The position numbers and the translations under genes were made by a program. A DNA stretch of 64,000 bases from NCBI GenBank assembly GCA_964422035.1, contig CAYQZQ010000001.1, forward strand, positions 249,013 to 313,012. The letters are read 5' to 3'. Of the stretch, positions 19,147 to 37,875 are shown one piece after another. The first letter of the stretch is position 1, and every line of letters begins with the position of its first letter. This DNA comes from an uncultured Pseudomonadales bacterium. GTDB taxonomy: Bacteria > Patescibacteriota > Microgenomatia > UBA1400 > Chazhemtobacteraceae. The notes beneath the pieces were generated by a model, which saw only the letters and a program-made list of their open reading frames with translations, did no database searches and was not told the origin of the DNA.

Positions 19147-20551
19147 TGAAGTTGTAGATTTGTTCCTGGTTGTAGCCGGCGTTATTTAACCAGGCGGGAA
19201 TGTTGTCTTTAGGGTCAGTTAGTTCTGATAGGTATTCAAAGTAGTAGACGGTGTCTTTGCCGGTAGTGATTTGGCTTAGATTTAGATCAAGTTCTTGGGG
19301 ATCAATTGATAGATCAGTTAATGCACCCGATGAGTTTAGTTGAGGAGCATACCAGCGAACAGGAGCAAATGGCTGAGGAAAGGCAAATACAGAGACTGAT
19401 TGCTGGTCTTGTTTTTGTAATACAAAATCCGTTGCTTGTTTCCAGTTTTCGCGATGAAAACTGGGCGTGGTCCAAAACAAGAAATTGGAAAAGAGAAAAG
19501 TAATTGATAAAAGCAGGATGTTAACCATGCTTAGTTTGGCAGGTAGATGGAAGATACCGATGGCCAAAAGAGACGAAAAAGCAGGAAGCAAAAACAGATA
19601 ACGCCAGTAGCCAAGCATAGGTATTTTAAAGGAAAGAGCTACCCCGATTAAGAGAGGAACAACTAACCATAACCAGAAAAGACGGGAGAGTTTTTGGAAC
19701 AGTGACAAGGCCATTAAAGAAAAGGTGTAAAGAAGTGAAGCGATAATAGCTAGTAAATAAAAATCATCAGAGGAGATATTAACTCTACCTAAGATAAACT
19801 TAACAGGAATCAGGGCGATGTTTTTTAAGGATAAGTCACCAGATAGCTGACTCCAGTTGGGAAGAGCCTCAACAAGATACTGACCCCCCTGGGTTTGCTT
19901 TATAAAAGTTGGTAGCCAAGGCAAGAAAGAAAGGGCGGTGAGAAATGTCCAAGGTAGTAGCTTTTTAAGTAGTTTTTTGTCAGCCAGAAGCAAGTAAATT
20001 AATTGAGAAAGAATGTTAAAGCCAGAAAGATAGTAGGTGTAAAGACCAAGGGTATTGGTTAATGCCCAGAGAATAAACCAGCTATTTTTATTGCTTTTTT
20101 GAGCTGAGACAAGAAAGTACCAGGAAGCAGTAACTAGGAAAGCAGCGGGGGCAAACATGCGCAGCTCTTGAGAGTAGTAGATGTGCAGGGGATTTAATGC
20201 CAAAAATAAGGCAGCTGTTGCAGGCAGGCTAAGCTTAACGGGGCCAATGACTAATTTTGGCATCTTGTTACCAAGAGCTTTTTTGAAAAGCAAGTAAAGC
20301 AAATATATAGCAGCGACGGAAAAAAGAATGTTGGGAAGTCGTAAGAACCATTCTTGAGTTAGACCTATTTTTAGCCAAAAATGCATAAAAAGATAGTACA
20401 GAGGAGGATGGAAGTCACCAGCAAGACTGGATATCAGTTGAGTAAGATCTTGTCTGGCAATAATTAAGGAAGCAGCCTCATCGAGCCAAAAACTTTGATT
20501 GACTAAGATGAGTCTTAAAACTGCTGCTAGAACAAGAATAAAATAGATCAT
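19112..20551 (-). CDS. GT-C fold glycosyltransferase, ArnT/PMT (GT39/GT83)-like
   Basis: The first-loop motif FWLDEAASLIIARQ follows TM1 (the DE motif of ArnT/PMT-family enzymes). About 11 TM helices and a C-terminal soluble domain. Confidence 0.6.
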   Translation of the reverse strand: MIYFILVLAAVLRLILVNQSFWLDEAASLIIARQDLTQLISSLAGDFHPPLYYLFMHFWLKIGLTQEWFLRLPNILFSVAAIYLLYLLFKKALGNKMPKLVIGPVKLSLPATAALFLALNPLHIYYSQELRMFAPAAFLVTASWYFLVSAQKSNKNSWFILWALTNTLGLYTYYLSGFNILSQLIYLLLADKKLLKKLLPWTFLTALSFLPWLPTFIKQTQGGQYLVEALPNWSQLSGDLSLKNIALIPVKFILGRVNISSDDFYLLAIIASLLYTFSLMALSLFQKLSRLFWLWLVVPLLIGVALSFKIPMLGYWRYLFLLPAFSSLLAIGIFHLPAKLSMVNILLLSITFLFSNFLFWTTPSFHRENWKQATDFVLQKQDQQSVSVFAFPQPFAPVRWYAPQLNSSGALTDLSIDPQELDLNLSQITTGKDTVYYFEYLSELTDPKDNIPAWLNNAGYNQEQIYNFNGVGFVYQYQH

Positions 20552-21747
20552 TTTTCTTCAACGGATTGCATGTCACCGGCGTGACGCAAAGCCAATGAGT
20601 GCCTTAATACACTAATTATAGTAAATGGAACTAGCGATATGGCAAAAATAACACCTTCTAGTGCTCCAGGGTCTTTTAAGCTGACATTTAAAAATATTAG
20701 GACAAGGATGGGGATCAAGCGTCCAAAGCTTTGATAAATCTGAGAGAAAATGCCGTATTCAACAACAAGATCTTCGTTTAAAGAATCAAGAGAGGAGATT
20801 TGGCTGTTAATTGGATTGATGGTTAAACTGAAAGTGGTATTAAGAAGAGTGTAAGTAGTGGCAAACAGAATTAAACCGGTGAGATTAAACTGAGAAGCAA
20901 AGGCAATACTGCCGGCTGTAAAGGCCACTGCGCCGAAAGCAAGTAAAACCAAAGATTGTTCTTGATCAAAAAGATATTGATAAATTATCCCCAACAAGAA
21001 CGAGAAAGCACCAAGAGCAAAGGTAAATATTCCCCACCCTCTTAAACCACCTACTAAGAAAAAGATAATGATATTTAATAGCGAGAAGAAAAAGCCGTCT
21101 TTAATTCCCATAAGAAAGTGCGCTTTAGCAAGAATAGGTTTTTCAGGATTGGTTTTTCTTGTAGGTAAAAGTGCTGCCTTAAGATTAAACTTAAAATCTG
21201 TTGAAGGAAAGGGGGCAAGAATGGTGAATATAGAGAGAATTATCAGTGAGATTAGACCGAGCCTGAATATCAAACCAAATGAGTTGTAACTTAAAGCAAT
21301 AAAGGCGAGTACGGGAGGCATGGCAACTTTAACCAATGAGCTGATGGATGAGAATCGACCAATGTCTGCTTCTGTACGGGACAGCTTAGTTTGCAGAAAA
21401 TCAGCCACAGTTAACAAGCTACCCAAAGAGACACCTTTTATTAGGCCTAAAAGAAAAGGCTGGGCTACTATAAGGTCTTGAGTGAAGATTAAGACAAGGA
21501 CAAAACTAATTGAAAAGAATATGGCTAGTAAGTAGCTGATTTTGGGACCGATGTATTCAATTAACCAAGCGATGATAAAAGCCATGAGGGGCAAGGTTAT
21601 AAAGGCACCAAGATTGTAGATGAGAATGGTGCGCAGTGATTGAGTCTGCTGCCAAAGAAAAAGATCAACAAAAGCACCAGAGGCTACCGTAGATAGATGA
21701 AAAAAGAAGTTATGTAACAGCCAAACGGGGGTTATTGTGGCAAACAT
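20548..21747 (-). CDS. Polytopic membrane protein (about 12 TM; transporter/flippase-like)
   Basis: 399 aa and uniformly hydrophobic. No catalytic motifs recognised. Confidence 0.45.
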   Translation of the reverse strand: MFATITPVWLLHNFFFHLSTVASGAFVDLFLWQQTQSLRTILIYNLGAFITLPLMAFIIAWLIEYIGPKISYLLAIFFSISFVLVLIFTQDLIVAQPFLLGLIKGVSLGSLLTVADFLQTKLSRTEADIGRFSSISSLVKVAMPPVLAFIALSYNSFGLIFRLGLISLIILSIFTILAPFPSTDFKFNLKAALLPTRKTNPEKPILAKAHFLMGIKDGFFFSLLNIIIFFLVGGLRGWGIFTFALGAFSFLLGIIYQYLFDQEQSLVLLAFGAVAFTAGSIAFASQFNLTGLILFATTYTLLNTTFSLTINPINSQISSLDSLNEDLVVEYGIFSQIYQSFGRLIPILVLIFLNVSLKDPGALEGVIFAISLVPFTIISVLRHSLALRHAGDMQSVEEK

Positions 21748-23544: not shown

Positions 23545-24387
23545 TTAGTAGCCCCTAGTGGGTGGAAACAACGATCTTTTTAGGCGGCGCAGAGGTGTTA
23601 GCAGTGCAGCAATTATCCAGAAAGATAGGGGGGCTTTGGGGGTAACATCAGGAACTTGAGGAGGTTTGTTTTCAAAAAAGACTTGAGGAATATCTTGATC
23701 GGGTATTTTTTCTCCCAGCTCGTATTTGTATTTACCAGGCCTTTTGATTACTTTTTTGTCCTCTACCCTACTTGAAGATCTTTGCAGATGAGTGGCGTGA
23801 TGATAGAAAAGGTCAAAGAATTTAATTTTCTGAGGATTTCTGTCCTGCACCAGAGTGCCGTTTTTATCAAAATATCCTTGCTGCCCATGAGGGCGGGAGA
23901 CGTTAAGGCCAGGAATTGTTTTTAAATTCATAAAGCGTAAACTTAGGTGTCCCTGCCTCCCGGCTAGTGAATAGTTGCCGGCGGACTCAGGTAAACGATG
24001 ATAAATATCACCTACCAAGTTATGAGTTCTCAGGACAATTGATTCGTAGTCGGGGCTGTTGACAGCAAAATCAGTAATTTTTTTAAGAGTATCGTGCGGC
24101 CAGACTTCGTCACCATCTAAAAGCATCAACCAGGTGTATTTTTCAGGAGTCTTTTCTAGCATTTGGTTGCGCATTTGGGTGAAAGTATGGGGGTCAACAG
24201 ATTCTTTTTGCTGAAAATCGATTTTGTCGGACTTGATTGACTTGATTATTTCTACGGTTTTATCAGTTGAGCCGGTGTCCCAAACCATAATCTTGTCTAC
24301 AAAAGGCAGGACTGATTTAAGAGAGTAGTAGATGAATCTTTCTTCGTTTTTAACCAGTGAGTGGGCAATAATTTGAGTCTTGTCCAT
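23545..24387 (-). CDS. GT-A fold glycosyltransferase (GT2-like)
   Basis: IIAHSLVKNEERFI...MVWDTGSTDKTVEII, with DxD in LLDGDEVW. Confidence 0.65.
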   Translation of the reverse strand: MDKTQIIAHSLVKNEERFIYYSLKSVLPFVDKIMVWDTGSTDKTVEIIKSIKSDKIDFQQKESVDPHTFTQMRNQMLEKTPEKYTWLMLLDGDEVWPHDTLKKITDFAVNSPDYESIVLRTHNLVGDIYHRLPESAGNYSLAGRQGHLSLRFMNLKTIPGLNVSRPHGQQGYFDKNGTLVQDRNPQKIKFFDLFYHHATHLQRSSSRVEDKKVIKRPGKYKYELGEKIPDQDIPQVFFENKPPQVPDVTPKAPLSFWIIAALLTPLRRLKRSLFPPTRGY

Positions 24388-24459: not shown

Positions 24460-26352
24460 ATGATGGGAGTGATGAGCTTAGTAACACTGGCTATTTCAGT
24501 AATTTTGGCAACATTAATAGGAATCCAGCAGATGATGCCTTCTTTTACATATGGATTGATTAATCTGGAAGGAATTATGCCCGCATGGAGAGGAGTTGTG
24601 TTTGTAACCATCAGTATCTGGATTGGTGGATTGTTGATCTGGTTGTTGTTATGGCAGATTGGGAAAATGGTTTCAAAGAAAATTAATGTTTTGGAAGAGA
24701 TAATGACCAATCAAAGAGTTGTTGATCTAATGATGTTTGGAGTTTTTCTTAGTTTGGGGATGTTTCTTTTTATATTAGAAAAGGTGCCTTTGTTTGCCAC
24801 ACCCTATCCCCTACTTGCATATGGGGTAACCATCTTGATGATTGGGTCGTTTAACCTTGTGGTTGGCTTGATGATATATGGAAGTTTAGAGTTCTATAAA
24901 AAATGGATAGACAAAATTAAGTTCACAGACGTGGTGGCAAAAAGCTTGGCTGGTTTGTTGGTGGTTTTTTGGTTAGTGATGCTGGTACCTGTGGTGGTAG
25001 CCAGAATGGGATTGAGAACTAGAAACTCCGATCTGAAAAACGTAGTTTTGATAACATCTGATACTTTAAGAGGTGACAGATTCTCCCCAGAGTACATGCC
25101 AGAGACTTATCAGTGGTTTGAGGACAAGGGAATTATTTTCAAGCAAGCATATTCGACGTCGCCTTGGACAACTCCTTCTTTTGCTTCGATGATGACTGGC
25201 AGGTATCCAGCGGAATTGGGGGCTGATCAGAATGTGGCTTGGGTGCGAGAAAACTTAATTATTTTACCTGAAATTGAAACCATGGCTGAAAAGTTTCAAG
25301 ACAAAGATTACTATACAGCAGCTATCTTGACTAATACTTGGCTGCAAGAAGAAAGAGGATTTGATCAGGGCTTTGATTACTTTGAAAATATTGAAATTCC
25401 AGATGTCTATCATTGGGGAATGACTGTGAAGGATTCGGGATGGCACAAAGTAATCGAAGAACTTGGAATAAAGAAAGTAACCAGGCTGGGTTTTGAGTAT
25501 TTTGTGGGGACAACGAGCGAAGAAAATGATTTTAGAGCAAATGCTGACATGGTTAGCAGGGAAGCAATCTGGAAATTAAAAGAATTACCTGAACCGTTTT
25601 TTATGTGGGTACACTATGTTGATCCTCACGCTCCATACGAGCCACCACAAGAAATGGGGCCTGATCTTTCAAAGTTATCTGAAAAATTAAGATTCAGTGT
25701 TGTTCGAGGTGATCTTGTACCCGAGCAAAAGCACCTAAGACCAACTGTGGTTGAGTTATACGATGGAGAGGTGCGATATCACGACAAAGAAATAGCTAAA
25801 ATCTTAAGATTTCTTGATAAAAGAGGGTTGAGTAAAAAGACTGCTGTAGTATTTACAGCCGACCACGGAGAACAGCTTTATGAAAATGATGTCATAGGAC
25901 ATGGGCTGTCATTGCGTAGAGAAGAAATTAATGTGCCCTTAGGCGTTTATCCAAAATTTCCAGTAGAGCAAGAAGTTGTTGATAACGAAGAAGTAAGCCT
26001 ACATTTACTTGGAGATTGGTTGCTAAAAATGGGAGAAAACAAAGCTGAGGAATGGTTGGCAGAAGAAATTGACAGGTCGGTATTTGCTGAAGGATTAAAT
26101 CGGGGAAATGAAAAGAAGGGCATTGTTGAAGGAGGGTGGAAATTGGTGTGGGAAGATAATAAAGATACAAATACCTGGGTTAGATCAGAAAATGATGAAG
26201 AAGTAATGTTACCTTACTATTACCCTACCCAAGCTAAAGACATGCAAAGTAAATTAGAAAGCTGGAGAGAAAGTAATCTTGAAGATAAAGAAAATTATTC
26301 TAAGAAATTGGAAAGACAGGATCTTATGCTAGAGGGAGCTGCTGGTTATTAA
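24460..26352 (+). CDS. Membrane-anchored alkaline-phosphatase/sulfatase-fold enzyme, Thr-nucleophile type (LtaS/EptA/OpgB-like phosphotransferase candidate), paralog A
   Basis: About 5 N-terminal TM helices. The catalytic-domain motifs are VVLITSDTLRGDRF, SPWTTPSFASMMTGRYP (T where type I sulfatases have the C of CxPxR, and no R), FFMWVHYVDPHAPYEPP and FTADHGEQ. The start was chosen at MMGVMSL (24460) by alignment with the paralogs. The track ORF starts at 24361 and overlaps the divergent upstream gene. Confidence 0.75.
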   Translation: MMGVMSLVTLAISVILATLIGIQQMMPSFTYGLINLEGIMPAWRGVVFVTISIWIGGLLIWLLLWQIGKMVSKKINVLEEIMTNQRVVDLMMFGVFLSLGMFLFILEKVPLFATPYPLLAYGVTILMIGSFNLVVGLMIYGSLEFYKKWIDKIKFTDVVAKSLAGLLVVFWLVMLVPVVVARMGLRTRNSDLKNVVLITSDTLRGDRFSPEYMPETYQWFEDKGIIFKQAYSTSPWTTPSFASMMTGRYPAELGADQNVAWVRENLIILPEIETMAEKFQDKDYYTAAILTNTWLQEERGFDQGFDYFENIEIPDVYHWGMTVKDSGWHKVIEELGIKKVTRLGFEYFVGTTSEENDFRANADMVSREAIWKLKELPEPFFMWVHYVDPHAPYEPPQEMGPDLSKLSEKLRFSVVRGDLVPEQKHLRPTVVELYDGEVRYHDKEIAKILRFLDKRGLSKKTAVVFTADHGEQLYENDVIGHGLSLRREEINVPLGVYPKFPVEQEVVDNEEVSLHLLGDWLLKMGENKAEEWLAEEIDRSVFAEGLNRGNEKKGIVEGGWKLVWEDNKDTNTWVRSENDEEVMLPYYYPTQAKDMQSKLESWRESNLEDKENYSKKLERQDLMLEGAAGY

Positions 26353-26404
26353 TGATCATGAATATATTAACAATCCTTGATTTTAAGGAAGATAATTAAC
26401 TGAT

Positions 26405-28282
26405 ATGCTAATAGAGATGAACTTAGTAGCACTGGCTATTTCAATAACTTTGGCAACACTAATAGGTATCCAGCAGATGATGCCTTCTTTTACCTTTGGG
26501 TTGGCTAGTAGTCAATACCTGTTGCCAGCTTGGAGGGGAGTAGCAGTAGTAAGTGTTTTTATCTGGTTGGCGGGAGTGATCATTTTTATAGCAATAAAGG
26601 AAAGTTTTTTACTGACAACCAAGAAGGTTAAGTTTTTGGCAGAAATCAAGCTGAGTGAACAACTGAAGAGTATTTTGATGTTGGGAATATTTTTAAGTCT
26701 GGGAATGTTTTTGTTTATTAGCGAGAAAGTGCCTATATTTGCAGCGCCCTATCCGCTACTGGCTTATGGAGTGACGATTTTGGCGATTGGTCTTTTTAAT
26801 ACTGTTTTGGGCCTGATGGTCTACGCAAGTTTAGAGTTTTACAAAAAATGGCTCAATAAAATCAACTGGCAGATACCGGCAAAGGTGATGGCAGGAGCAA
26901 TATTGTTTTTCTGGATGGGACTACTGCTACCAGTAGTAGTTAAGAGGGTAGGAATTAGAGCCAAGACAAACGACAAGAAGAATGTGGTCGTAATCACCTC
27001 AGACGCTTTAAGAGGTGATAGGTTTAACACTGAGTACATGCCAGAAACTTACAGCTGGTTTGAAAATAAGGGAGTAATATTTGAAAATGCTTACGTACCA
27101 GCGCCTTGGACGGTGGCTTCATTTACAAGCATGATGAGTGGTAAGTATCCATCTCAGCTGGGAGCTGACAGAGGAGTAACTTGGATTAGAGAGAATTTGA
27201 TTTTATTACCAGAACTGGAATTGATAGCAGAAAGATTTCAGGATGAAGATTATTACACTGCAGCAGTATTAACAAACACTTGGTTGACTGAAGAGAGAGG
27301 GTTTGATCAAGGTTTTGATTATTTTGAAAATATTGAAAAACCAGATCTATATCATTGGGGAATGACAGTGAAAGATTCGGGATGGTTTAAGGTATTAGAA
27401 CAGTTAGGAGTAGACAAGAAAGTAAGACTGGTATACGAGTATTTTGTGGGAGCCACCAGTGAAGAGAATGACTTTAAAGCAAATGCTGACATGGTAAGCA
27501 GAGCGGCGATTTCAAAAATCAAGGAGTTACCGGAACCCTTTTTTATCTGGATTCATTATGTTGATCCCCATGATCCTTATGAACCACCGGTAGAACTGGG
27601 ACCTGATATCTCACAACTCTCAGAGGAAAAAAGACAGGATATTGTCAGTGGTAATCTAAATGAAAATGAAAAAGATCTAATAGAAATAATGATAGGGCTT
27701 TACGACGGGGAGGTAAGGTATCACGACAAAGAAATTGTCAAGATATTAAACTTTCTGGACAGAAGAGGGTTAAGCAAAAGAACAACGGTAGTGTTTTCAT
27801 CGGATCACGGCGAGGAATTAAATGAAGTAGGAGAGATTGGGCACGGACTATCTTTACGCGAGGAAGAAGTAAATATTCCCTTGGCTATATACCCCAGAGT
27901 AACCGAGGAATCTCTAATAAATGATGAAGTAAATCTGTGGAACATAGGAGATTTGTTGTTGGAGCTTGGTGATGGCAAAATAGACGAGTGGTTATCTAGT
28001 CAAAATGAAGGAGAAGTATTTTTAGAAAGCTTAAGTTACGGTAGTGAGAGAAAGGCAATAGTTAGTAATGGGAAAAAACTAGTCAGATTTATGGAGGAAG
28101 GAAGATACGAATTAAAAGATCTGAGAGGAGATGAATCTATAGCTCTCCCCTACTCGGCTCTAGCAAGAGAGTTGCAAGTTAAGTTAGACAACTGGATTGA
28201 AGGCAATCTAGAAGAAAGAGAAGAATACTCCAAAAAAATGGAAAGGCAAGATCTTATGCTTGAAGGAGCTGCAGGTTATTAA
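26405..28282 (+). CDS. Same family, paralog B
   Basis: VVVITSDALRGDRF, APWTVASFTSMMSGKYP, FFIWIHYVDPHDPYEPP, FSSDHGEE. The C-terminus MERQDLMLEGAAGY is nearly identical to that of paralog A. Confidence 0.75.
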   Translation: MLIEMNLVALAISITLATLIGIQQMMPSFTFGLASSQYLLPAWRGVAVVSVFIWLAGVIIFIAIKESFLLTTKKVKFLAEIKLSEQLKSILMLGIFLSLGMFLFISEKVPIFAAPYPLLAYGVTILAIGLFNTVLGLMVYASLEFYKKWLNKINWQIPAKVMAGAILFFWMGLLLPVVVKRVGIRAKTNDKKNVVVITSDALRGDRFNTEYMPETYSWFENKGVIFENAYVPAPWTVASFTSMMSGKYPSQLGADRGVTWIRENLILLPELELIAERFQDEDYYTAAVLTNTWLTEERGFDQGFDYFENIEKPDLYHWGMTVKDSGWFKVLEQLGVDKKVRLVYEYFVGATSEENDFKANADMVSRAAISKIKELPEPFFIWIHYVDPHDPYEPPVELGPDISQLSEEKRQDIVSGNLNENEKDLIEIMIGLYDGEVRYHDKEIVKILNFLDRRGLSKRTTVVFSSDHGEELNEVGEIGHGLSLREEEVNIPLAIYPRVTEESLINDEVNLWNIGDLLLELGDGKIDEWLSSQNEGEVFLESLSYGSERKAIVSNGKKLVRFMEEGRYELKDLRGDESIALPYSALARELQVKLDNWIEGNLEEREEYSKKMERQDLMLEGAAGY

Positions 28283-28382
28283 GCAATCTTTGATTATTTC
28301 TATAATTTAATTAAATCTATAGCGAAGTAAAAAGACACAGAGAGAGCTTTGGGCCTTTTTGGCAAACCGATGGGTAACTGAT

Positions 28383-30266
28383 ATGCTAGAAGTGATGAAT
28401 TTGTCTACACTATCTATCTCATTTATCTTGGGAGCCCTAATAGGCACCCAACAAACTTTAAAGACCTTGATTTATGGCTTGAGTAATAGAGAAGATTTAT
28501 TGGTTTCTCTAAGGGGCTCGATTATAGTGACGATAACTATCTGGTTGATCGGCTTTTTAATCTGCGGTGTTCTCAAAAGCTTGATCAAGATATTGAGCGA
28601 CAAAAACAAAAAAATTAGCGAACTGAATAAGGATAGAAGATTTAACGATCTGGTAATGGCAGGAGTATTTTTGAGCATTGGTATGTTTTTGTTTGCTGCC
28701 GAGAGAGTGCCACTGTTTGCCACCCCATATCCCCTATTGGCTTATAGCGGATTGGTTATGATCGTTGTCTTGATAAGTACTGTCATGGGTTTAATGGTTT
28801 ATGCTAGCTTGGATTACTACAAAAAATGGATTAATAAAATAAATTGGAATATTTGGATAAATGCTTTGGGAGGAGTAGTGTTGGTATTTTGGATAGGAGT
28901 AACTACACCTCTTTTGATTAAGAGGTTGGGACTGAGAATTCGAAGAACTGATAAAACAAATGTTGTATTGATTACTTCAGACACACTGAGAGGAGACAGA
29001 TTTACTGCTGAATACATGCCAGAAACATATGAGTGGTTTAGTAAAGGAACCATCTTTGAAAGAGCATATTCCACTTCTCCTTGGACAGTGCCCTCTTTTG
29101 CAAGCATGATGACCGGCAAGTATTCGGGTGAGTTGAGTGCAGACAATTTTCAATGGTGGATTGATGACAATTTTTTATTATTACCTAAGGAAGAAACATT
29201 GGCAGAGAAATTTCAAGATCGCGGCTATAGTACAACAGCAGTGTTGACAAATGGTTATTTAGTAGAAGACAGGGGGTTTGACCAGGGATTTGATGTCTAT
29301 GAAAATGTGGAGTTTACAAAGAGCTATCATTGGAGGCCAGCAATGAAAGAAACAGGATTGTATATAACCCTGGAACAACTTGGCCTGGAGAACCAGATGA
29401 GAAAAGTGTATGAATATTTTGTGGGCATGACTGAAGAGAGCGATGAGCTGATAGCTGACGCTGAGATGGTGAGTAGCGAAGCTATTCGCCAAATACAAGG
29501 GTTAAAGGAGCCATTCTTTGTCTGGATTCACTACTATGACGCTCACGGTATATATAATCCACCAGAAGGATATGGGCCAGATATTTCTAATTTATCTGAT
29601 GATTTGAAAAAAGCTGTGATGTCAGGTGATATTGACAAAGACAACTTGGAACTCAGAGAAGTAGTGATTGGCTTATACGACGGAGAAGTGCGTTATCACG
29701 ATAAGGAAATTGCACGAGTGTTAAGATTTCTAGACAGAAGAGGGCTAAGCAAACGTACAGCGGTGGTATTTACAGCAGATCATGGTGAACAGTTTTGGGA
29801 AGGAGGTCAGTACGGACACGGGTTTAGCTTGCGTAATGAAGAGATTAGGGTGCCTTTGGCAGTATCCTCAATCTTTGATTTTGATAATCAAATAGCAGAA
29901 AATAACGAAGTGAGCTTATATCTTTTAGGAGATTGGCTGCTAGATATGGCAGAAGGAGATCCCGATCACTGGTTAGAAGAAGAGTTGAGCAGGTCGGTGT
30001 TCGCTGAGGGTTTGAGAAGTGGAGTAGAAAAGAAAGGAATAGTAAATGAAGAGTGGAAACTGGTGTGGGAGATAGAAAATAACAATACAAGCTTGAAAAA
30101 CGCCTTTAATGATGAATCATACAGAGGTTATATGTATCCAAGCATAAGCGGTACTCTTGAGTCAGAACTTAGATCATGGAATGAAAATAATGAGGAAGCA
30201 GGGGGAAACTACCGTAAAGCTTTGGAGAGAGTTGATGTTAATTTACCAGAAGTTTCTGGTTACTGA
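28383..30266 (+). CDS. Same family, paralog C
   Basis: VVLITSDTLRGDRF, SPWTVPSFASMMTGKYS, FFVWIHYYDAHGIYNPP, FTADHGEQ. Start chosen at MLEVMNLS (28383). The track ORF begins at an upstream TTG (28359). Confidence 0.7.
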   Translation: MLEVMNLSTLSISFILGALIGTQQTLKTLIYGLSNREDLLVSLRGSIIVTITIWLIGFLICGVLKSLIKILSDKNKKISELNKDRRFNDLVMAGVFLSIGMFLFAAERVPLFATPYPLLAYSGLVMIVVLISTVMGLMVYASLDYYKKWINKINWNIWINALGGVVLVFWIGVTTPLLIKRLGLRIRRTDKTNVVLITSDTLRGDRFTAEYMPETYEWFSKGTIFERAYSTSPWTVPSFASMMTGKYSGELSADNFQWWIDDNFLLLPKEETLAEKFQDRGYSTTAVLTNGYLVEDRGFDQGFDVYENVEFTKSYHWRPAMKETGLYITLEQLGLENQMRKVYEYFVGMTEESDELIADAEMVSSEAIRQIQGLKEPFFVWIHYYDAHGIYNPPEGYGPDISNLSDDLKKAVMSGDIDKDNLELREVVIGLYDGEVRYHDKEIARVLRFLDRRGLSKRTAVVFTADHGEQFWEGGQYGHGFSLRNEEIRVPLAVSSIFDFDNQIAENNEVSLYLLGDWLLDMAEGDPDHWLEEELSRSVFAEGLRSGVEKKGIVNEEWKLVWEIENNNTSLKNAFNDESYRGYMYPSISGTLESELRSWNENNEEAGGNYRKALERVDVNLPEVSGY

Positions 30267-30268
30267 AT

Positions 30269-32149
30269 ATGATTAACGCTATGACATTGATAAGTTACTG
30301 GGTAGTTCTGGGGATCATGGTGGGAGCACAACAACTTATGCCAGTAACTGTTTTTGCTTTCTTAAAGCCCTGGCAGGCTGAAATTTCCTTTAGAGCAGTG
30401 ATGGCATTTTCAATCTGGTTGATTTTTTTAGGCGGGGCATTAGTAGCACTACTTAGGGGGCTTATTAAAACTGTTAGCAGAAAACTTGAGTGGAACAGTA
30501 TTAGAAAAGCAAGTGATGAGTTGGGCTTTGGACTGGCTTTGAGTACAGCAGTGTTTTTGACAATGGGAGTGTTTCTCCTTTCAGTTGAAAAAATTCCGGT
30601 TTTGGAAAAGGAAAAACTTTTAGGAGCAGTGTTGATGAGCAGTTTAGTGTTAATTATTTTGACCACCTTTGTTTTTTACGGAGCATGGAAGTATTACGAG
30701 AAATGGATCGAAAAATATGCCAGGATAACTATCTTGGGCCTAGGTGGTTTAGTAGTTTTGCTAACCACTACTTTGTTTGGAGTTAAGCTTATTGGAGATC
30801 GATGGCCTATTAAGGCAGAAAAGTCAGATAAGCCCAGTGTTATCTGGGTAACAGTAGATGCCTTAAGACATGACAGATTCACATTAGAGTATATGCCACA
30901 AACTTATCAGTGGTTTGAGGAGGAGGGGTATATTTTTGAAAACGCCATGGCTCCTGCCCCCTGGACTGTCCCCTCTTTTGCATCCATGGTTACAGGCGAG
31001 TATCCATCTCAGATGCGAGCGGATCTGCCAATGAATGAACAGGAAAAGAATTTTGAGGTTTTGCCAGAAAAAATTACCATAGCAGAGGAATTTAAGGATC
31101 TGGGGTACAGTACAGCTGCGGTAGTAACCAACGGTTGGCTAAATGAGAGAAGAGGTTTTGATCAGGGGTTTGACTATTTTGTTAATCTGGAAGCGACAAA
31201 TGTCTACGACTGGGGGAAAGTCACTCATGATTCTGGGTTTTATAAATTAAGCGAGGCAATTGGCTGGGAAAATAAATTAAAAAACTGGTACCAGGGCCTG
31301 GTAAGAGTGAGAAGTACTGAATCGGCTTTTGAAATTGACGGTGAAGTGGTGGTGAATGAGGCGCTGAAGGTGAGAGAGCGCTTGCAGGAACCATACTTTT
31401 TATGGATTCACCTGATTGACCCGCACGGACCATACATTCCACCAATTGAGTTTTACCCCAACACAGCTGGTTACACAGGAGATGAGGTTTATAAAGCAGA
31501 ACACATGGTTGACCGGGAAGCCTCTGATAAGCTGCGTGAGCTTACGGTTACTTTTTATGATCAACTGGTCGCCTATACTGATCAACAGCTTTACAGACTG
31601 TTCTCAGAGCTGGAGAAGAGCGATGAGAGCATGGTGATAGTGTTTAACAGCGATCATGGAGAGCAGTTTTGGGAGAATGATGGGGAAATCGGACATGGTC
31701 ACAATTTGTATGCTGAAAATGTTCATGTACCAATGGCAATTGCCACAGATGGAGATTGGGAGTGGAAAGAAGAATCAGAGGACCTGGTGGACTTAAAAGA
31801 GATTAAAAACATCATGCTTTCTATTGCTGAAATTGAAGAGGTAGATTTTTTGGGAGAGGACAAGATGGTGTTTGTGGAGGGCAGAATTGAGGGACCAGGT
31901 CAGCAAGCAGTAATAAATCCTGACACCTGGAAGCTGATCACCAAAAAAGGAGCTGAAGAACTTTACATTTTGCTTTTCGATCCTAAAGAAATGATGAATC
32001 TACGAGCAGTTAGAAGGTATTTGGGCGGGAGACTAAGCGGTCAGATTGAAGACTGGCAGAGCGGTATGCAGCAGAAAAGAAAAGAATACGCCAGAAAGTT
32101 AGAACAAAGACATGGAGGAGAAAGCTTGCCAGATGTGGCAGGTTATTAG
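30269..32149 (+). CDS. Same family, paralog D (most divergent)
   Basis: VIWVTVDALRHDRF, APWTVPSFASMVTGEYP, YFLWIHLIDPHGPYIPP, FNSDHGEQ. Its start is 2 nt after the paralog C stop. The C-terminus ...SLPDVAGY matches the family tail. Confidence 0.7.
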   Translation: MINAMTLISYWVVLGIMVGAQQLMPVTVFAFLKPWQAEISFRAVMAFSIWLIFLGGALVALLRGLIKTVSRKLEWNSIRKASDELGFGLALSTAVFLTMGVFLLSVEKIPVLEKEKLLGAVLMSSLVLIILTTFVFYGAWKYYEKWIEKYARITILGLGGLVVLLTTTLFGVKLIGDRWPIKAEKSDKPSVIWVTVDALRHDRFTLEYMPQTYQWFEEEGYIFENAMAPAPWTVPSFASMVTGEYPSQMRADLPMNEQEKNFEVLPEKITIAEEFKDLGYSTAAVVTNGWLNERRGFDQGFDYFVNLEATNVYDWGKVTHDSGFYKLSEAIGWENKLKNWYQGLVRVRSTESAFEIDGEVVVNEALKVRERLQEPYFLWIHLIDPHGPYIPPIEFYPNTAGYTGDEVYKAEHMVDREASDKLRELTVTFYDQLVAYTDQQLYRLFSELEKSDESMVIVFNSDHGEQFWENDGEIGHGHNLYAENVHVPMAIATDGDWEWKEESEDLVDLKEIKNIMLSIAEIEEVDFLGEDKMVFVEGRIEGPGQQAVINPDTWKLITKKGAEELYILLFDPKEMMNLRAVRRYLGGRLSGQIEDWQSGMQQKRKEYARKLEQRHGGESLPDVAGY

Positions 32150-33384
32150 AGCAGACTTTTTAATTTCCAGCCAGTTAAGACTAAAACGACGGTGTTTGAG
32201 ACAGCTAAAGCTATGGTTGGGGCCATAGGGCCCATGGTGGGAATAAGAATTACTTCAATAATGACCAGTAACCCCACCTGTATAGCGGTAGCAAGAGCGG
32301 TGAAGTTGGGTTTATTGAAAAAGTATATTAATGGATTAGTAGTGATAATGGAAAGCAAAAACGGGATCATGGCTAAGGTCAGATATCTAAACACAGGAAT
32401 GGCCGCAGCATATTGGCTACCAAAGACTGTGTTGACGATGAGAGGAGCCAGCAGGATAGACAAAACCATTAAGACTGAGATTCCTCCGATTAGAAGTGAG
32501 GTCTTTTTAATGTAGGCGGTTACTTGTTTTTTCTTATTAAATGACGAGAAGCGAGGAGCAACCACACTACCAAGAGAGGAAACCAGCAAGGCAAAAAGCA
32601 TGGTGATGCGGGAAGCAGCAGCGTATATGCCCGCCTGATGGTTAGTGCCAAGGGCATTTAGCAGAATTACATCAACACGAGAGATGGCCACACTGAAGCT
32701 TCGCATGATGGCAACCCATTTTGTGAAGTGGAATATTCTTTTCAGGTACTGTTTGGGGAAGATAAAAGAGATGTTGCCCAGCTCTTTGAAAAGACCAATG
32801 CTGGCAGCTAGAGTAACTGAACCAATAATGGATAAGAGAACTATGCGGATGTCTAACGTAAATAAGAAGAACAATAAGCCAACGGGAATTAATTTTCCGA
32901 CAGATTCGATTATTTGAACTATAGCTGAGTACAAGAAATTCTTTTCTGCTTTAAGAAGGTATTGAGCAAACCCACTGATTAGAGCGGCAGAAGTAAGAAT
33001 GGGTAATAAAAGAAAGTGAGTAAGAGTTGAGCCGGGGATTATCTGACTGTGCCAAGGACTAACAACTAGAATTAAGAGAGCTAAGAAAATGGCAATTATT
33101 ATCTGAATCCAGAAAGACAGGGAAACAATAGAGTTCCTGTCTGACTTGTACTTGGGAATAAAATTAACTAAGGCTGAGGATATGCCCATGTCCCCTAAGC
33201 TAGCTAGCAGAATAGCTGTAGAGGTTAAGGCTGACAAGACACCAAACTGGGAGGGAGCCAGACCTCGAGCTACCAGAATGGTAAAGGTAGCGCCAGAGAC
33301 AGCCACTATGCCGTTGCCCATTAAGGTAATAAAGGTATCTTTGGAAGTGTCTGAAAAAACCAGGTGTTTAATTTTGCTGATCAT
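32146..33384 (-). CDS. wzx: Polysaccharide biosynthesis / Wzx-like flippase (MOP superfamily)
   Basis: 412 aa with about 12 TM. The N-terminus FITLMGNGIVAVSGATFTILVARGLAPSQFGV is typical of Polysacc_synt/Wzx proteins. Its stop overlaps the paralog D stop by 4 nt (convergent). Confidence 0.55.
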   Translation of the reverse strand: MISKIKHLVFSDTSKDTFITLMGNGIVAVSGATFTILVARGLAPSQFGVLSALTSTAILLASLGDMGISSALVNFIPKYKSDRNSIVSLSFWIQIIIAIFLALLILVVSPWHSQIIPGSTLTHFLLLPILTSAALISGFAQYLLKAEKNFLYSAIVQIIESVGKLIPVGLLFFLFTLDIRIVLLSIIGSVTLAASIGLFKELGNISFIFPKQYLKRIFHFTKWVAIMRSFSVAISRVDVILLNALGTNHQAGIYAAASRITMLFALLVSSLGSVVAPRFSSFNKKKQVTAYIKKTSLLIGGISVLMVLSILLAPLIVNTVFGSQYAAAIPVFRYLTLAMIPFLLSIITTNPLIYFFNKPNFTALATAIQVGLLVIIEVILIPTMGPMAPTIALAVSNTVVLVLTGWKLKSLL

Positions 33385-34954
33385 TGCTGACTAGAATTGT
33401 ACCGATAAATTCACGATTTTCGTAGATTTGACCGGGATTAATTTCAAATGTAGTTAAAACTTGATAATTTTCTGAGAGAAACTCATTTTCAATATTTTTA
33501 GGGCTGTAAACCACCTCACTCCACTCCCCTAGTGCAAAATCTGCATCGTGCTCTTTGTAGTTGGTAATAACTATGTAATCTACTTTATTTTGGAATCCCT
33601 CAAGCATATCTGGCTTAATAGGAAACCACATAGTAGTTAAGCCTTCATACCAAGCTGCCCAAGCGTCTAGGTTGGTGATTATCAAATGATCTTTAGGAAT
33701 GTGCTGAGCCATAATGCGAGAGATTTCACGATAAACGGGCGGTTTATTAGTGTTATATTTTTGAGCTCTGAAGCGAGCATCTATAGTGAAGTGCCCTATT
33801 GATGGCAGGAGAATGAAAAATACAACAACAGATAAAGCCAGATTGGAAAACTTGAGATTTGCTTTTTTGATGATCTGGACTAAAGAAATAGATGCAGAGA
33901 TAAAAACCAGTGGCATAGCTGGATGGATATAGCGGGCGTTAGGTAAGGTAAGAGCCGAGGAGAGAATAAATAAGGATAGAGTGATAAGAGTAAAGAGGTT
34001 AAATTTTTTGATTTTAGCAGGCAAATTTCTTAGGAAAAAGCCTAAGATGAAGAAGATAAAGATGCCGGCAGGGGCTAAGCGAGAAGGGTCTTTAAGGAAA
34101 TTGTAAGTGTTGTAAAAAAGTTTAGAAGCTGTTTGAAATAGGGAAGTTGATGAGTAGCCACCACCTCGAATGAAGGTTCCTGGATTTAGAGACGGAAGAA
34201 TGTTTATAGACCCTAAATGAGAGGTAAAAACAGACAAAAAACCAAGCGCTCTGAGAAGGAAAAAGATAACCGCAATGCCGATGAGACGAGGAGCTAAATA
34301 ATTGAACTGTTTGCGTTTGGATTGTTTGGTTTTGGCTAAGATGAGTAGTAAGTAGAGGCTAAAGGCTAAATAAATTATGATTGCTTGAGGGCGAGTAAAA
34401 TACATTAATATCAGGGGGATAAAGCCAAGATATTTATATCTAGATTTGACGATAATAAATAGATAGACAGATAATAAGATTTCAAGTGTAAAGATAATCT
34501 CTGTAGAAAAATTCAAAGAATATTCAAAGAAAAAGAGATTGGTAAGGAGAAGCAAGCAAGCAATGATAGCTGATTTCAGGTGAGAAATCTTTTTAGTGAT
34601 TTTGAAAACAATAACAGCTGAGATGAGCAAAACAAAGAAACCTGTCAAAGCTACCGAGGTGTCAGAGGCGGGGAAAATTCTAAAGACTAAGTTGAGAATA
34701 ATACTGATTAGGGGCCTGAAGTTGCTGGAAAAACCGCCTCCCGTATATTCGGCTAGAACAACAGGGTTAAAAAAACTGTGGTTGATGGCTAATATACCTT
34801 TATTGAGTAAATTGTTGGCAGCTTGGGCATATTTAGCAGAATCAGAAAATGATAGATAGAAGCTCATATGCTTAATTGTACCTGAAAGAATGATCTTGTT
34901 TAATTCTTCCAGCACACTAGTATAATTTGTACTTATGATAGGAAGTGTTGTCAC
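33368..34954 (-). CDS. GT-C fold glycosyltransferase candidate (ArnT/GT39-like, degenerate DE motif)
   Basis: 528 aa, polytopic. SFSDSAKYAQAANNLLNKG resembles the (D-E..Y.A..A.NM) first-loop motif of ArnT-like enzymes, with D-S in place of D-E. The start is uncertain; an alternative M lies at MSFYLSF. Confidence 0.45.
   Translation of the reverse strand: MTTLPIISTNYTSVLEELNKIILSGTIKHMSFYLSFSDSAKYAQAANNLLNKGILAINHSFFNPVVLAEYTGGGFSSNFRPLISIILNLVFRIFPASDTSVALTGFFVLLISAVIVFKITKKISHLKSAIIACLLLLTNLFFFEYSLNFSTEIIFTLEILLSVYLFIIVKSRYKYLGFIPLILMYFTRPQAIIIYLAFSLYLLLILAKTKQSKRKQFNYLAPRLIGIAVIFFLLRALGFLSVFTSHLGSINILPSLNPGTFIRGGGYSSTSLFQTASKLFYNTYNFLKDPSRLAPAGIFIFFILGFFLRNLPAKIKKFNLFTLITLSLFILSSALTLPNARYIHPAMPLVFISASISLVQIIKKANLKFSNLALSVVVFFILLPSIGHFTIDARFRAQKYNTNKPPVYREISRIMAQHIPKDHLIITNLDAWAAWYEGLTTMWFPIKPDMLEGFQNKVDYIVITNYKEHDADFALGEWSEVVYSPKNIENEFLSENYQVLTTFEINPGQIYENREFIGTILVSNDQQN
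34896..34926 (+). promoter_or_regulatory. Candidate sigma70-type promoter (TTGTTT ...19 nt... TATAAT) 8 nt upstream of the ATG at 34935
   Basis: A perfect TATAAT hexamer sits at 34921..34926 and a TTGTTT at 34896..34901. This implies a very short leader for the plus-strand membrane-protein gene. Confidence 0.3.
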
Positions 34955-37088
34955 AGTTTTGGCGTTTCTAATCCTGAGTTATTGTATATATAAACTCTTT
35001 GAATACTTAGTGGATTGGGACAAAGTGACATTACTCCTTTTGTCTTTTGTCCTGGGCCCAATGGTTTTGGGGTGGTTTTTATTTGAATTAATATTGTTGG
35101 TGCCAGGACAAAGAACTTATTTTTATCCAATCGTAGTTTTATCTTTATCTGTAATACTTTTTTTAATTAAACCAGTTAAGGAAGTAGTTTTTGATTTTAA
35201 AAAAGCATTAGAAAAGGTGTTAGAAATAATCAGAAGCTTTTCTAATATGGACAAGGATGTGATGTGCTTAACCGTATTGATTCTATGTATCTTGGTGGGG
35301 ATTATGACTTTAGTTGTTTTTTGGCCTCCCTCGTGGAGTGACCAGCTGACATACATCTTACAAGCGAAAGGGGTGGTGATAAATCGAAACTTATCGGTAT
35401 TTGGCAAGCTTCAACAGTTCAGATTTTCTGGTTCATGGTTCAGTAATAATACAATGGTTAGACCCGGACTAACAATGGTTTATGCGTTTTATTTTTTTTG
35501 TAAACCAAGCTTTTTATACCTAGGCCATATCGTCAATTTTGTCGCTACATACTACTGGATAATTATGGTGGCAACTGCGTTTTACGTGTCTTACAGAAGG
35601 AGGGGTGTCGAGGTTGGATTGCTAACAGTATTATTGACCATCACTGTGCCCTATCTAAACAAATTTTTGATTATGGGATCAAAAGAACTAATATTGATTC
35701 CGCTTATTCTGCTGTTGATAGACCTAATCTCATCATCAGATGCGGCGTATACCAATATAGAGATGTTGGTTTTCGGATTGATTCTGGGATTTATGAGTAT
35801 GATTAATTTTAGTGGTGTTATCATGGCTTCGATAATTGGAATATTGGCATTGATATTCAGGAGACGGAGTAAAACTTTGATTGGCTCTCTGCTACTACTT
35901 ATAGGAGTTTGCCTGATTGCCCATTTTGAGATCAGCTTCTTTTTAAACTGGCTGGACATAGACTGGTTTAGTATAGATTTGAGCAATCTTTCTAACGGAG
36001 CAAGAAAAATTTCATTAATAAAAGATATTGTGACAACGAAAGATACTATTGGGAGCGAACTAGCACAAACCGAGTTACCAGGATATGGTATCGCCAATAA
36101 GTTGCAGATATTTACCAATGGTAAATTGCAAGCATTTACTCATATTCATCACTATGGATTGTTATTTTGGGGGTTTTTAATTACAAGTGCTTTAAATTTC
36201 AAAAAGATTGTAAAGAACAGGTTTCTGAAGATCAACATGATTTGGATCATAGTCTATTATGTGTTGATAATAGATCTGTTTAACTTGAATCCGCACCCTA
36301 GAGCATATGTGTTAACCATTAATCCTAAATATCATATGATGATTGCTCCATCGATGGCAGTAATGTTAGCTAGCTTAATGTCAGAATCTGGAATAATTTC
36401 CAATAATAAAGCGCAAAGATTGTGGAAATTTACGGGCATTACAGTAGGTGTGTTGTCTTTATTAATATTCATCTATCCCAAGTTTTTTATTCATTTGTTA
36501 GGCAAGGTATGGGGACGGGTGTTACCTTTAACATTAAGCGCAATATATTACACTGATAAATTGAGAGTGGTGGGAGGTGCCTTGATAGTTGGTTTTGTAG
36601 TTGTTAAGTTATTATCTTTTTTGTGGAAGGATAGTAAAAATAAAAACGCTCTGAGGAAATGCTTAATATATTGGATGGTTTTTGTGGTGCCATTTTTATC
36701 TTATTTTGGCACAGAGTACCAATTTGATATCTATAAACATCTTTTTGGAGCTCCAATTGAGAAAGCTGAAGCATTTAGTAAAGGAAATCGCAATTTTTTC
36801 CCGATAATTAAATTTTTAAACAAAGAGTCTAAATATGAAAACAGTTTGATAATTACTAGCTCTGGTCATTATCCTAAGATGCTGTTCTATCTTGATAAAC
36901 ATAAATACTCTGTTGCCAGGTGGTCAAAAATGAATGCATTTCAAAAGGAGATACAAAAGAATAAATCAATTATTTTGGTGTGGCCTGCCGGCAAGGTTAA
37001 TAACATGCTAGAACGATTTAGTGGTAGCAGCAAACTTATATATGAGCGGAATGGATTAGTTGTATATTATATATATGAAGATGAGTAG
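34935..37088 (+). CDS. Large polytopic membrane protein (about 14 or more TM), unknown function
   Basis: 717 aa and hydrophobic throughout, with short loops. It sits inside the glycan locus. No catalytic motif recognised. Confidence 0.5.
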   Translation: MIGSVVTVLAFLILSYCIYKLFEYLVDWDKVTLLLLSFVLGPMVLGWFLFELILLVPGQRTYFYPIVVLSLSVILFLIKPVKEVVFDFKKALEKVLEIIRSFSNMDKDVMCLTVLILCILVGIMTLVVFWPPSWSDQLTYILQAKGVVINRNLSVFGKLQQFRFSGSWFSNNTMVRPGLTMVYAFYFFCKPSFLYLGHIVNFVATYYWIIMVATAFYVSYRRRGVEVGLLTVLLTITVPYLNKFLIMGSKELILIPLILLLIDLISSSDAAYTNIEMLVFGLILGFMSMINFSGVIMASIIGILALIFRRRSKTLIGSLLLLIGVCLIAHFEISFFLNWLDIDWFSIDLSNLSNGARKISLIKDIVTTKDTIGSELAQTELPGYGIANKLQIFTNGKLQAFTHIHHYGLLFWGFLITSALNFKKIVKNRFLKINMIWIIVYYVLIIDLFNLNPHPRAYVLTINPKYHMMIAPSMAVMLASLMSESGIISNNKAQRLWKFTGITVGVLSLLIFIYPKFFIHLLGKVWGRVLPLTLSAIYYTDKLRVVGGALIVGFVVVKLLSFLWKDSKNKNALRKCLIYWMVFVVPFLSYFGTEYQFDIYKHLFGAPIEKAEAFSKGNRNFFPIIKFLNKESKYENSLIITSSGHYPKMLFYLDKHKYSVARWSKMNAFQKEIQKNKSIILVWPAGKVNNMLERFSGSSKLIYERNGLVVYYIYEDE

Positions 37089-37875
37089 CTCAGATCCTTT
37101 TTTTTCAGTCATTACCTGTACGAAGAATGTGGGTCGGCATTTAAAAGAAAATATTGACTCCGTAAAGAATCAGGACTTTAATAATTATGAACATCTGTTT
37201 GTAGATGGTTATTCAACTGATAATACTGAAGCTTTGATTAAAAAATACATGAAGAAGGGCAGCCGAGTGCGCTTAGTTTCAAGGAAACCCGAAGGGATCT
37301 CCAGGGCCATGAACGAAGGTATCAGAGTTAGTCGAGGAAGATACTTAATCCATCTACACGGGGATGATCGTTTGTCTGACGACCAAACGTTAATGCGGTT
37401 GCATAATTTCTTGATTAGTAGCCCAAGACTGGATTGGTTATATGGCAAGATAAAGGTAATTGAGAAAGATGAAAGAATAATAGGTAGTTTTCCGGAAAAT
37501 AGATTGCTTCAGCTTGGTTCTCAGAATTGTCTTACCTATCAATTATTGAAATTTTATAATTTTATACCTCATCAGGCAGTGGTGATAAAAAGAAAAGTGT
37601 TTCAAAGATTTGACATGTTTGATGAGTCACTTAGTTCAAAGATGGATTATGATCTATGGCTAAGGATAGCAAAAAATACAAACTGGTCTTTCTTTGACAG
37701 TTATATTAGTAATTTTATGATCAGGGCAGGGGCCCAATCATCTTCGATCGACAAGAAAAAAGAGAACTGGAAGAATTTAAATACAGTGCAGAAAAGGTAT
37801 CTTAATATTGTTGAATTGTGTTTTGCACGATTGATGAACAAGGCGCTGTATTTTTTTGCTAGGAACACTAGATAG
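37060..37875 (+). CDS. GT2-family glycosyltransferase
   Basis: FFSVITCTKNVGRHLKENIDSV...FVDGYSTDNTEALI. Confidence 0.8.
   Translation: MYIIYMKMSSSDPFFSVITCTKNVGRHLKENIDSVKNQDFNNYEHLFVDGYSTDNTEALIKKYMKKGSRVRLVSRKPEGISRAMNEGIRVSRGRYLIHLHGDDRLSDDQTLMRLHNFLISSPRLDWLYGKIKVIEKDERIIGSFPENRLLQLGSQNCLTYQLLKFYNFIPHQAVVIKRKVFQRFDMFDESLSSKMDYDLWLRIAKNTNWSFFDSYISNFMIRAGAQSSSIDKKKENWKNLNTVQKRYLNIVELCFARLMNKALYFFARNTR

Follow-up and report, generated by a model that had tools for sequence, protein, structure and literature searches.

Four adjacent genes in a surface-glycan gene island of an uncultured bacterium from the Candidate Phyla Radiation (CPR) encode sulfatase-like membrane proteins whose catalytic domains have diverged and whose last two residues are always Gly-Tyr (GY). 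The genes, named A to D in their order on the forward strand, were analyzed within a stretch of 64,000 nucleotides (contig CAYQZQ010000001.1 of assembly GCA_964422035.1, positions 249,013 to 313,012), which is referred to below as the window. A reading of this DNA from its sequence alone had proposed that the shared ending, (A/S)GY-COOH, is a functional C-terminal signal, such as a sorting tag, a partner-docking tail, or a processing site. The question raised by the locus is therefore what such an ending does on four enzymes of this kind. Here, we report that it is a lineage-specific trimmed form of a family-wide helix-Leu-Gly-Tyr motif (LGY), carried by a clade of enzymes with the sulfatase fold and a Thr nucleophile, and we argue that it is probably a part of the enzyme modules themselves.

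Results and discussion

The common C-terminal end of the four paralogs

The global identity of the paralogs is 61% between A and B, 53% between A and C, and 49% between B and C, and D is 35-36% identical to the other three, in agreement with the one-third that had been estimated by eye for D and A. All four proteins consist of ~190 N-terminal residues with five predicted transmembrane (TM) helices followed by a Pfam Sulfatase domain (PF00884), and the loops, read by the positive-inside rule, suggest that the catalytic domain faces outward. In the mechanical list of open reading frames (ORFs), paralog A starts at a GTG codon (24361) and overlaps the 5' end of the divergent gene for a GT2 glycosyltransferase by 27 nt. 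The ATG at 24460 is favored by alignment with B-D and by the sequence itself and is likely the true start of A; a 72-bp divergent promoter region is then left between the two genes.

The translated ORFs end in KKLERQDLMLEGAAGY (A, stop codon closing at 26352), KKMERQDLMLEGAAGY (B, at 28282), KALERVDVNLPEVSGY (C, at 30266), and RKLEQRHGGESLPDVAGY (D, at 32149), all of them exactly as the sequence-only reading had quoted them; the last letters are thus LMLEGAAGY in both A and B, NLPEVSGY in C, and SLPDVAGY in D. Tandem duplicates might share an end without any function, by chance resemblance or by recent gene conversion, and the arrangement of the four genes as well as the 13 identical terminal residues of A and B would fit such an origin. 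These 13 residues, however, are encoded with five synonymous codon differences, the stop codons of A, B, C, and D are unlike (TAA, TAA, TGA, and TAG), and GY is kept in homologs from unrelated phyla at 24-30% identity. The synonymous differences and the unlike stop codons indicate that selection acts on the protein, rather than a recent gene conversion or a DNA motif, and an origin by chance or gene conversion is effectively refuted. Causes at the nucleotide level (a conserved stop context or the ribosome-binding site of the next gene) were ruled out, since the stop codons and the intergenic distances differ and the tail codons differ synonymously. The tail is under purifying selection. The only invariant columns among the last ~55 of an alignment of eight sequences, with identities to D down to 24-33%, are G625 and Y626.

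Distribution and form of the motif in the family

Two sets of homologs were collected: a first set of 124 sequences (120 database hits and A-D) and a second set of 146 new sequences, clustered at 50%, which came from running a profile of the CPR-type subclade exhaustively against 1.84 billion representatives with HMMER. In the first set, GY occurs within the last 20 residues of 104 proteins, where the frequency of GY elsewhere in these proteins would predict 7%; exactly two residues follow it in 57 of the 124, and none in 13. The second set gave a similar picture, with GY no more than 12 residues from the end in 126/146 sequences and an exact GY end in 28/146. Taken over both sets, about 85% of 266 homologs from many phyla have GY no farther than 12 residues from the C-terminus (expectation, 7%), most homologs have 0-12 or more residues after it, and 41 of the 270 family sequences end precisely in GY. 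The names of the source organisms include Planctomycetota, Acidobacteriota, candidate division BRC1, CPR bacteria, and Halorubrum, an archaeon by its source name. At E <= 1e-30 the profile search matched 41,737 cluster representatives, true sulfatases among them. The survey of homologs proposed by the sequence-only reading has thus been carried out, and its expectation that the tail is conserved for a function was borne out, as homologs outside the array do carry the tail and the tail is under selection.

The consensus logo of the motif is [LMI]-[DST]-[PE]-E-[TL]-x-[ER]-x-L-[RK]-[AS]-L-G-Y-[IVL]-[QED], and its commonest form can also be written [LMI]-D-P/E-E-x3-L-[RK]-A-L-G-Y-[IVL]-[QED]. In structural terms this is a short, N-capped helix that bears a hydrophobic stripe and closes with Gly-Tyr, after which there are usually two more residues, one hydrophobic and one polar. 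The distance from the DPxE signature in the C-terminal subdomain to GY has a median of 50 residues and is mostly 46-55. Of 178 occurrences of the context L..[LMIAV]G-X, 176 have Tyr at X, and neither Phe nor Trp is seen there. One subclade of the second set ends in (L/F)G(D/E)VVGY, and intermediate endings (LRxGGY, LRSGGY, LRNLGY, LEDLGY, and LGDVVGY) link the canonical motif to the version found in the window. Several seeming exceptions have LGY farther from the end, followed by acidic extensions. Three homologs with C-terminal tetratricopeptide repeats (TPRs) have no tail. A possible origin of the tail as a remnant of a TPR helix was considered and dropped: the LGY spacing is unlike the TPR consensus, and the fusion proteins described below offer a simpler picture. 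Literature searches on "LGY motif", on Thr-nucleophile sulfatase-like enzymes, and on C-terminal Tyr in Patescibacteria glycosyltransferases returned nothing relevant to the motif, and it appears to be undescribed so far.

The array of the window has a counterpart on a contig from Guaymas Basin sediment (L083, 1-9995), where three sulfatase-like paralogs of the same orientation all end in GGY and two unannotated genes of ~680-700 aa lie between them; the array of the window is therefore not the only one of this family, and others are found beyond its lineage.

Position of the motif in the catalytic module

Among 266 members, 24 are fusions in which two complete catalytic domains stand in tandem (proteins P0251-P0338). 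In 20 of the 24, the first, internal domain ends in a canonical LGY just before the second domain, as in P0252, where RADLEALGYLED occupies residues 460-466 and domain 2 begins at 468. Most fusions have LGY at the end of each domain, and four have it in neither copy. The internal copies imply that a free carboxyl end is not required; together with the variable number of trailing residues, they do not agree with a free-C-terminus ligand of the PDZ or tail-specific protease type. The fusions also hint that the domains work as pairs, if the reasoning of the Rosetta-stone approach applies.

In the AlphaFold2 (AF2) model of the canonical member P0042, a helix (residues 387-404), a linker, a second helix (417-425), and the final GYIN are predicted, with block values of the predicted local distance difference test (pLDDT) of 83, 81, and 89 up to the very end, coil residues included, which implies that the terminal segment is packed on the domain. 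In the model of paralog D, one long helix (583-617) is predicted instead, and the pLDDT falls from 97 to 63 along it. The Pfam SGSH_C matches leave the last 25-50 residues uncovered, and the tail lies outside the coverage of Pfam, NCBIfam, and PDB. The sequence-only reading had named, as a finding that would refute it, a tail that is part of the conserved catalytic domain and not an appended motif. The fixed spacing after DPxE, the internal copies, the trailing residues, and the packing in P0042 indicate such a part of the conserved domain architecture, with one qualification: in the lineage of the window the tail is trimmed to an exact GY end and is not confidently docked in the monomer model of D.

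These observations bear directly on the proposal of a free C-terminal recognition peptide, be it a sorting or secretion tag, a tail that docks to a scaffold or in the manner of PDZ ligands, or a site of proteolytic processing. Such a peptide would account for the disordered tail of D at the tip of a protruding helix, as is usual for short linear motifs, for the exact GY ends within the family, and for the GY end of the unrelated neighboring GT2 family. The motif, however, is the end of a module at a fixed position that stands internally between the domains of the fusion proteins, 1-12 or more residues follow it in most members, and it is packed confidently in the canonical P0042 model. Its carriers (Planctomycetota, Acidobacteriota, CPR bacteria, and Halorubrum) have very different envelopes and no sorting machinery for the envelope in common. 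Unlike in LPXTG, PEP-CTERM, and GlyGly-CTERM proteins, the motif is followed by neither a TM helix nor a basic cluster, and no recurrent partner gene was seen in the contexts examined. A signal for sortase, exosortase, or rhombosortase would require a hydrophobic TM segment and a basic cluster after the signature motif; the proteins end 0-2 residues past GY, the tail-bearers have no hydrophobic segment after the domain, and no sortase-type gene was found near A-D. We therefore regard a recognition peptide as quite unlikely, and the tag, docking tail, and processing site suggested earlier are not favored by these observations.

A sulfatase fold with a threonine nucleophile

The Pfam Sulfatase domain is detected in A-D with scores of 95-115 bits against a cut-off of 25 (115 bits for A). 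A Foldseek search assigned the sulfatase-like fold, with choline sulfatase and arylsulfatases matched at E-values of about 1e-16. For D, the AF2 model has a mean pLDDT of 87.7 and a predicted template modeling score (pTM) of 0.81. The position of the catalytic nucleophile is occupied by Thr in all 124 aligned sequences (A-D and the 120 listed homologs) in the context (A/S)(P/S)WT-x-PS. In A-D the sequence is WT-[VT]-[PA]-S-F, without the Arg at the fifth position of the C/S-x-P-x-R motif that marks formylglycine (type I) sulfatases. The metal ligands of type I sulfatases, an N-terminal Asp and an Asp-His/Asn pair, are present (D197, and D462 with H463), and the complete list of invariant residues (in D numbering) is D197, T233, H386, D462, H463, and H476. 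According to the SulfAtlas authors, Thr-containing members of PF00884 cannot be considered functional sulfatases, since Thr cannot give formylglycine (PMC5066984). Because of the Thr and the absent CxPxR, the clade is not one of true sulfatases and represents an unnamed Thr-type clade of the alkaline-phosphatase superfamily without a characterized member.

None of the curated NCBIfam models comes near its cut-off for A-D: the EptA/MCR-type models score 15-54 bits against 500-1250, in the DHGE region only, and the choline sulfatase equivalog TIGR03417 scores 46-55 bits against 433. EptA and MCR are marked by a five-TM N-terminal domain, a Thr nucleophile, and His/His/Asp/His metal ligands. The proteins of the window have five hydrophobic segments, the Thr, and the invariant H386 and H476, and, compared by pattern, their ligands may correspond to those of MCR-1; the invariant residues of A-D recall Thr-type phospho-transferases such as EptA/MCR-1. 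Nearly all members of the clade carry a signal peptide, a lipobox, or a TM anchor, which suggests that the enzymes sit outside the cytoplasmic membrane. A plausible role of A-D, as we infer it, is the addition or removal of phospho-substituents on an envelope glycopolymer or lipid. Four such enzymes in the surface-glycan island of a CPR organism are plausible modifiers of its envelope polymer.

The preference for Tyr over Phe could have a chemical reason, in that the Tyr would be a tethered acceptor, a pseudo-substrate, or a lid at the Thr-metal center of its own chain or of a partner, or would be phosphorylated or glycosylated by enzymes of the cluster. The hydroxyl seems to matter, as Phe never substitutes for it, the active site, with its six invariant residues, resembles that of Thr-type phospho-transferases, and genes of the cluster include two for PMT_2 GT-C proteins and one for a GT2 protein whose nearest solved relatives (GmaR, SunS, and ThuS) glycosylate proteins or peptides. 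In addition, a comparison of tail-bearing and tail-less members revealed weak differences near the DHGE loop (E256 and E272 in P0042 numbering). A hydrogen-bonding structural Tyr, though, accounts for the same invariance, the modification itself has no direct support, the correlation at the DHGE loop is weak, includes 22 tail-less sequences, and is confounded by phylogeny, and in other genomes the sulfatase-like family shows no linkage with GT2 or PMT_2 genes. A chemically engaged Tyr is consequently very unlikely in our judgment.

For annotation, the result concerns tens of thousands of database proteins that are labeled "sulfatase" or "arylsulfatase A-like" and belong to sulfatase-fold families, and among which the Thr-type clade cannot make formylglycine. 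A diagnostic pair that would separate this clade from real sulfatases is WT-x-PS at the nucleophile position together with the terminal helix-LGY ~50 residues after DPxE.

A probable latch at the end of the catalytic module

We consider it reasonably probable that the motif is a domain-closing structural latch, or an oligomerization tip, at the end of each catalytic module. Once past the final long helix of its C-terminal subdomain, the chain would return to the protein surface, where Gly would end the helix and permit a turn, and the side chain of Tyr would plug a predicted pocket on the catalytic core. This core may be that of the own chain or that of a neighboring protomer, near the active-site entrance, as in the nearest solved relatives. 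The plug would thereby latch the domain or the oligomer and perhaps shape the entrance of the substrate. In the window, one plug would have been retained by all four diverged paralogs, whether because every one of them needs it to fold or because it fits a common socket in homo- or hetero-oligomers. The Tyr hydroxyl would be needed for docking, because Phe is never accepted at this position. As the motif is extracytoplasmic and occurs across very different envelopes, an intrinsic role is suggested rather than a conserved external partner, and GY would be a small element that probably controls folding, oligomerization, or access to the active site. We infer the docking site, the choice between docking in cis and in trans, and any effect on catalysis.

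Several points weigh against this explanation. Residues 619-626 of D are coil with a pLDDT below 50 in the AF2 monomer, so that docking is at most a prediction for the proteins of the window, although a tail that is trimmed at GY and poorly placed in a monomer model could possibly dock in trans, on a second subunit. The last ~18-28 positions of the profile are matched by no solved chain, no solved structure has the motif, and the clade has no experimentally studied member. The likeness to the C-terminal arm of choline sulfatase, discussed below, is one of architecture and not of sequence, and oligomerization of the family in the window is a suggestion by analogy. Finally, the single-domain members with an exact GY-COOH are polytopic in 30 of 37 cases (81%) compared with 91 of 172 (53%) for the others, and a free carboxylate or the membrane domain could matter in this subgroup.

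The last point is also one basis for a possible role in the membrane. In polytopic proteins of the CPR type, the long helix might return to the membrane and place the Tyr among lipid head groups or on the protein's own TM domain, and thus orient the catalytic domain over a lipid-linked substrate. Besides the enrichment of polytopic members, this would agree with the 35-residue helix of D, the end of which is not packed on the domain, with the amphipathic helix and basic patch before GY in the GT2 neighbor, and with the nature of Tyr as a typical interfacial residue. The same motif, however, is present in soluble, lipoprotein, and signal-peptide forms without a TM domain and inside fusion proteins, the segment preceding it is acidic or polar rather than amphipathic-basic, and the enrichment may reflect phylogeny alone. 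We regard the membrane anchor as unlikely.

An improbable extension of the structural latch is a plug that acts in trans: the Tyr hydroxyl would reach the Thr-metal active site of the partner, the enzymes would be obligate dimers, the fusions covalent dimers, and A-D hetero-oligomeric complexes. Were it true, A-D would add different phospho-substituents to the surface glycopolymer with diverged catalytic pockets and a single plug-and-socket interface, and in a stronger version the Tyr would be transiently or stably modified.

The glycosyltransferase neighbor with a GY end

The GT2 protein encoded divergently to paralog A has a fold unrelated to A-D and the same last two residues. Its GY end is found in 113 of 120 homologs (54-88% identical), which are named, where a name is given, as CPR bacteria and in one case as "archaeon", and the closest of which come from CPR bacteria of the Microgenomates group. 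The end is preceded by a conserved amphipathic helix and a basic patch; some sublineages have no last ~6 residues, and three homologs end in SGYI. The nearest solved relatives are the protein and peptide glycosyltransferases GmaR, SunS, and ThuS.

The idea that GY-COOH is a general signal of the lineage was examined by scanning 79 Microgenomates loci and the window (1.42 Mb, 1150 ORFs), and was rejected, as the scan gave 51 GY-ended ORFs, namely 47 GT2 homologs (including that of the window) and A-D, and nothing else. The result, with no other GY-ended family in the 79 loci, also speaks against the recognition peptide considered above. So does topology: with the GT2 tail predicted in the cytoplasm and that of the sulfatase-like proteins on the outside, a shared partner is awkward. 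No sulfatase-like gene was found within 10 kb of GT2 in any other Microgenomates locus scanned, and no GT2 gene next to the homologs P0002, P0004, P0005, and P0006. Because the two families are not neighbors elsewhere and the membrane would separate their tails, the shared GY is probably a coincidence.

A gene for a hexapeptide-repeat acetyltransferase (14928-15563, reverse strand) has an invariant LGR(A/P)RLFQ end in the window and in 24 related loci; invariant C-termini are therefore not rare among orthologs. In many Microgenomates genomes it lies ~9 kb from GT2, and the two genes accordingly belong to a conserved core of the glycan cluster. Many of the contigs that carry GT2 at 37-65% identity (L002-L080) are titled "uncultured Pseudomonadales" or "Gammaproteobacteria", and equally close hits come from Woese-, Ames-, Davies-, and Collierbacteria, so the former titles look like mislabeled taxonomy of metagenome-assembled genomes.

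Genomic context

Nearly the whole window (1-64000) is one surface-glycan island with many GT1/GT4 and GT2 genes. The features discussed in the text and the principal genes of the island are listed in Table 1. Four large ORFs (17803-19146, 20548-21747, 34935-37088, and 40860-42452) have no Pfam match. The G+C content of the region 34001-48000, which contains the genes for nonulosonic acid and their neighbors, drops to 0.34-0.37 from about 0.41, and this block may have been acquired separately.

Table 1. Paralogs A-D, their C-terminal features, and other genes of the glycan island (positions in the window)
Feature	Position	Strand	Source or remark
Paralog A	24460..26352	+	ORF list; start from alignment to B-D and sequence
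Paralog A tail (MLEGAAGY), then stop TAA	26326..26349	+	ORF translation
Paralog B	26405..28282	+	ORF list; tail MLEGAAGY at 28256-28279; stop TAA
Paralog C	28359..30266	+	ORF list; tail NLPEVSGY at 30240-30263; stop TGA
Paralog D	30269..32149	+	ORF list; identical to database protein P0001 on a contig of 725,544 bp
Paralog D Thr233 codon	30965..30967	+	Position of the sulfatase Cys/Ser (formylglycine) nucleophile; context PWTVPSF, no CxPxR
Paralog D long C-terminal helix (residues 583-617)	32015..32119	+	AF2 secondary structure; carries the tail at its tip
Paralog D tail (SLPDVAGY), then stop TAG	32123..32146	+	ORF translation
GT2 glycosyltransferase, ends PPTRGY	23545..24387	-	Divergent to A; fold unrelated to A-D; GY codons 23548-23553
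Wzy_C protein	12117-13508		
PMT_2 GT-C protein	19112-20551		
Polysacc_synt flippase	32146-33384		
PMT_2 GT-C protein	33368-34954		
NeuB	42464-43324		
Cytidylyltransferase-HAD fusion	43311-44453		
MptE-like protein	44525-45355		
Wzt-type ABC ATPase	46529-47803		

The pair of paralog D and the flippase gene is syntenic in another contig (L082, 303-3412), where an ortholog of D (P0002, 68% identical) is followed by the same convergent, overlapping gene for a 412-aa Polysacc_synt flippase. In two further contigs, the gene for a CPR-type sulfatase-like homolog (P0004 or P0005) adjoins a gene of 560-575 aa for a type I phosphodiesterase (PF01663) on the opposite strand, which is upstream and divergent in L001 (940-2622) and downstream and convergent in L081 (3541-5268). 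The phosphodiesterase and the sulfatase-like gene beside it possibly form a functional pair. Both phosphodiesterases were checked for a GY tail, and neither has one.

Comparison with known systems

Conserved C-terminal sequences on extracytoplasmic proteins are known from LPXTG, PEP-CTERM, GlyGly-CTERM, and PGF-CTERM proteins and from the C-terminal domain (CTD) of type IX secretion system (T9SS) substrates. The LGY motif differs from all of these, as it is not followed by a TM helix and basic tail, is not part of a ~80-residue beta-sandwich domain, and also occurs internally. The tail thus represents no new sorting system and, on present evidence, nothing surprising in kind.

Paralogs A-D resemble EptA/MCR-1 and LtaS in a five-TM N-terminal anchor, an extracytoplasmic domain of the alkaline-phosphatase superfamily with a Thr nucleophile, a pattern of an invariant Asp, an Asp-His pair, and two further His, and a location in a surface-glycan gene cluster. 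The overall sequence of A-D is nearer to the arylsulfatase and choline-sulfatase models, and an LGY tail is not known from either EptA or LtaS. The Thr-containing PF00884 members flagged in SulfAtlas likewise match the Pfam Sulfatase domain with Thr in place of the catalytic Cys/Ser; described there are a TxNxE group of Streptococcus proteins and, in general, seed members of the Pfam family, and neither the WT-x-PS clade nor a C-terminal motif (PMC5066984).

The nearest solved folds, by Foldseek and profile searches, are those of choline sulfatase, an arylsulfatase of E. faecium, SpAS1/2, and phosphonate monoester hydrolases. Choline sulfatase (SmCS; 6FNY, 6G5Z), the phosphonate monoester hydrolases (2VQR, 2W8S), and SpAS1/2 (4UPI, 4UPL) have the same fold as the family of the window, and their extension after the SGSH_C-type subdomain opens with a long helix, as does that of D with helix 583-617. 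This group uses formylglycine (CxPxR), whereas the family of the window has Thr and no Arg, and its tails have no LGY sequence. In choline sulfatase, phosphonate monoester hydrolases, and dimeric arylsulfatases, the C-terminal extensions mediate oligomerization and reach the active-site entrance of the partner protomer; in choline sulfatase, a long helix leads the tail across to the second protomer, loops over whose active-site entrance are touched by the extreme C-terminus, and the truncations Δ12 and Δ23 lower both activity and tetramer content (PMC5870055). Against this background, the helix-LGY motif can be regarded as an unsurprising variant of the C-terminal extensions known in the sulfatase fold, on an uncharacterized clade of Thr-type enzymes.

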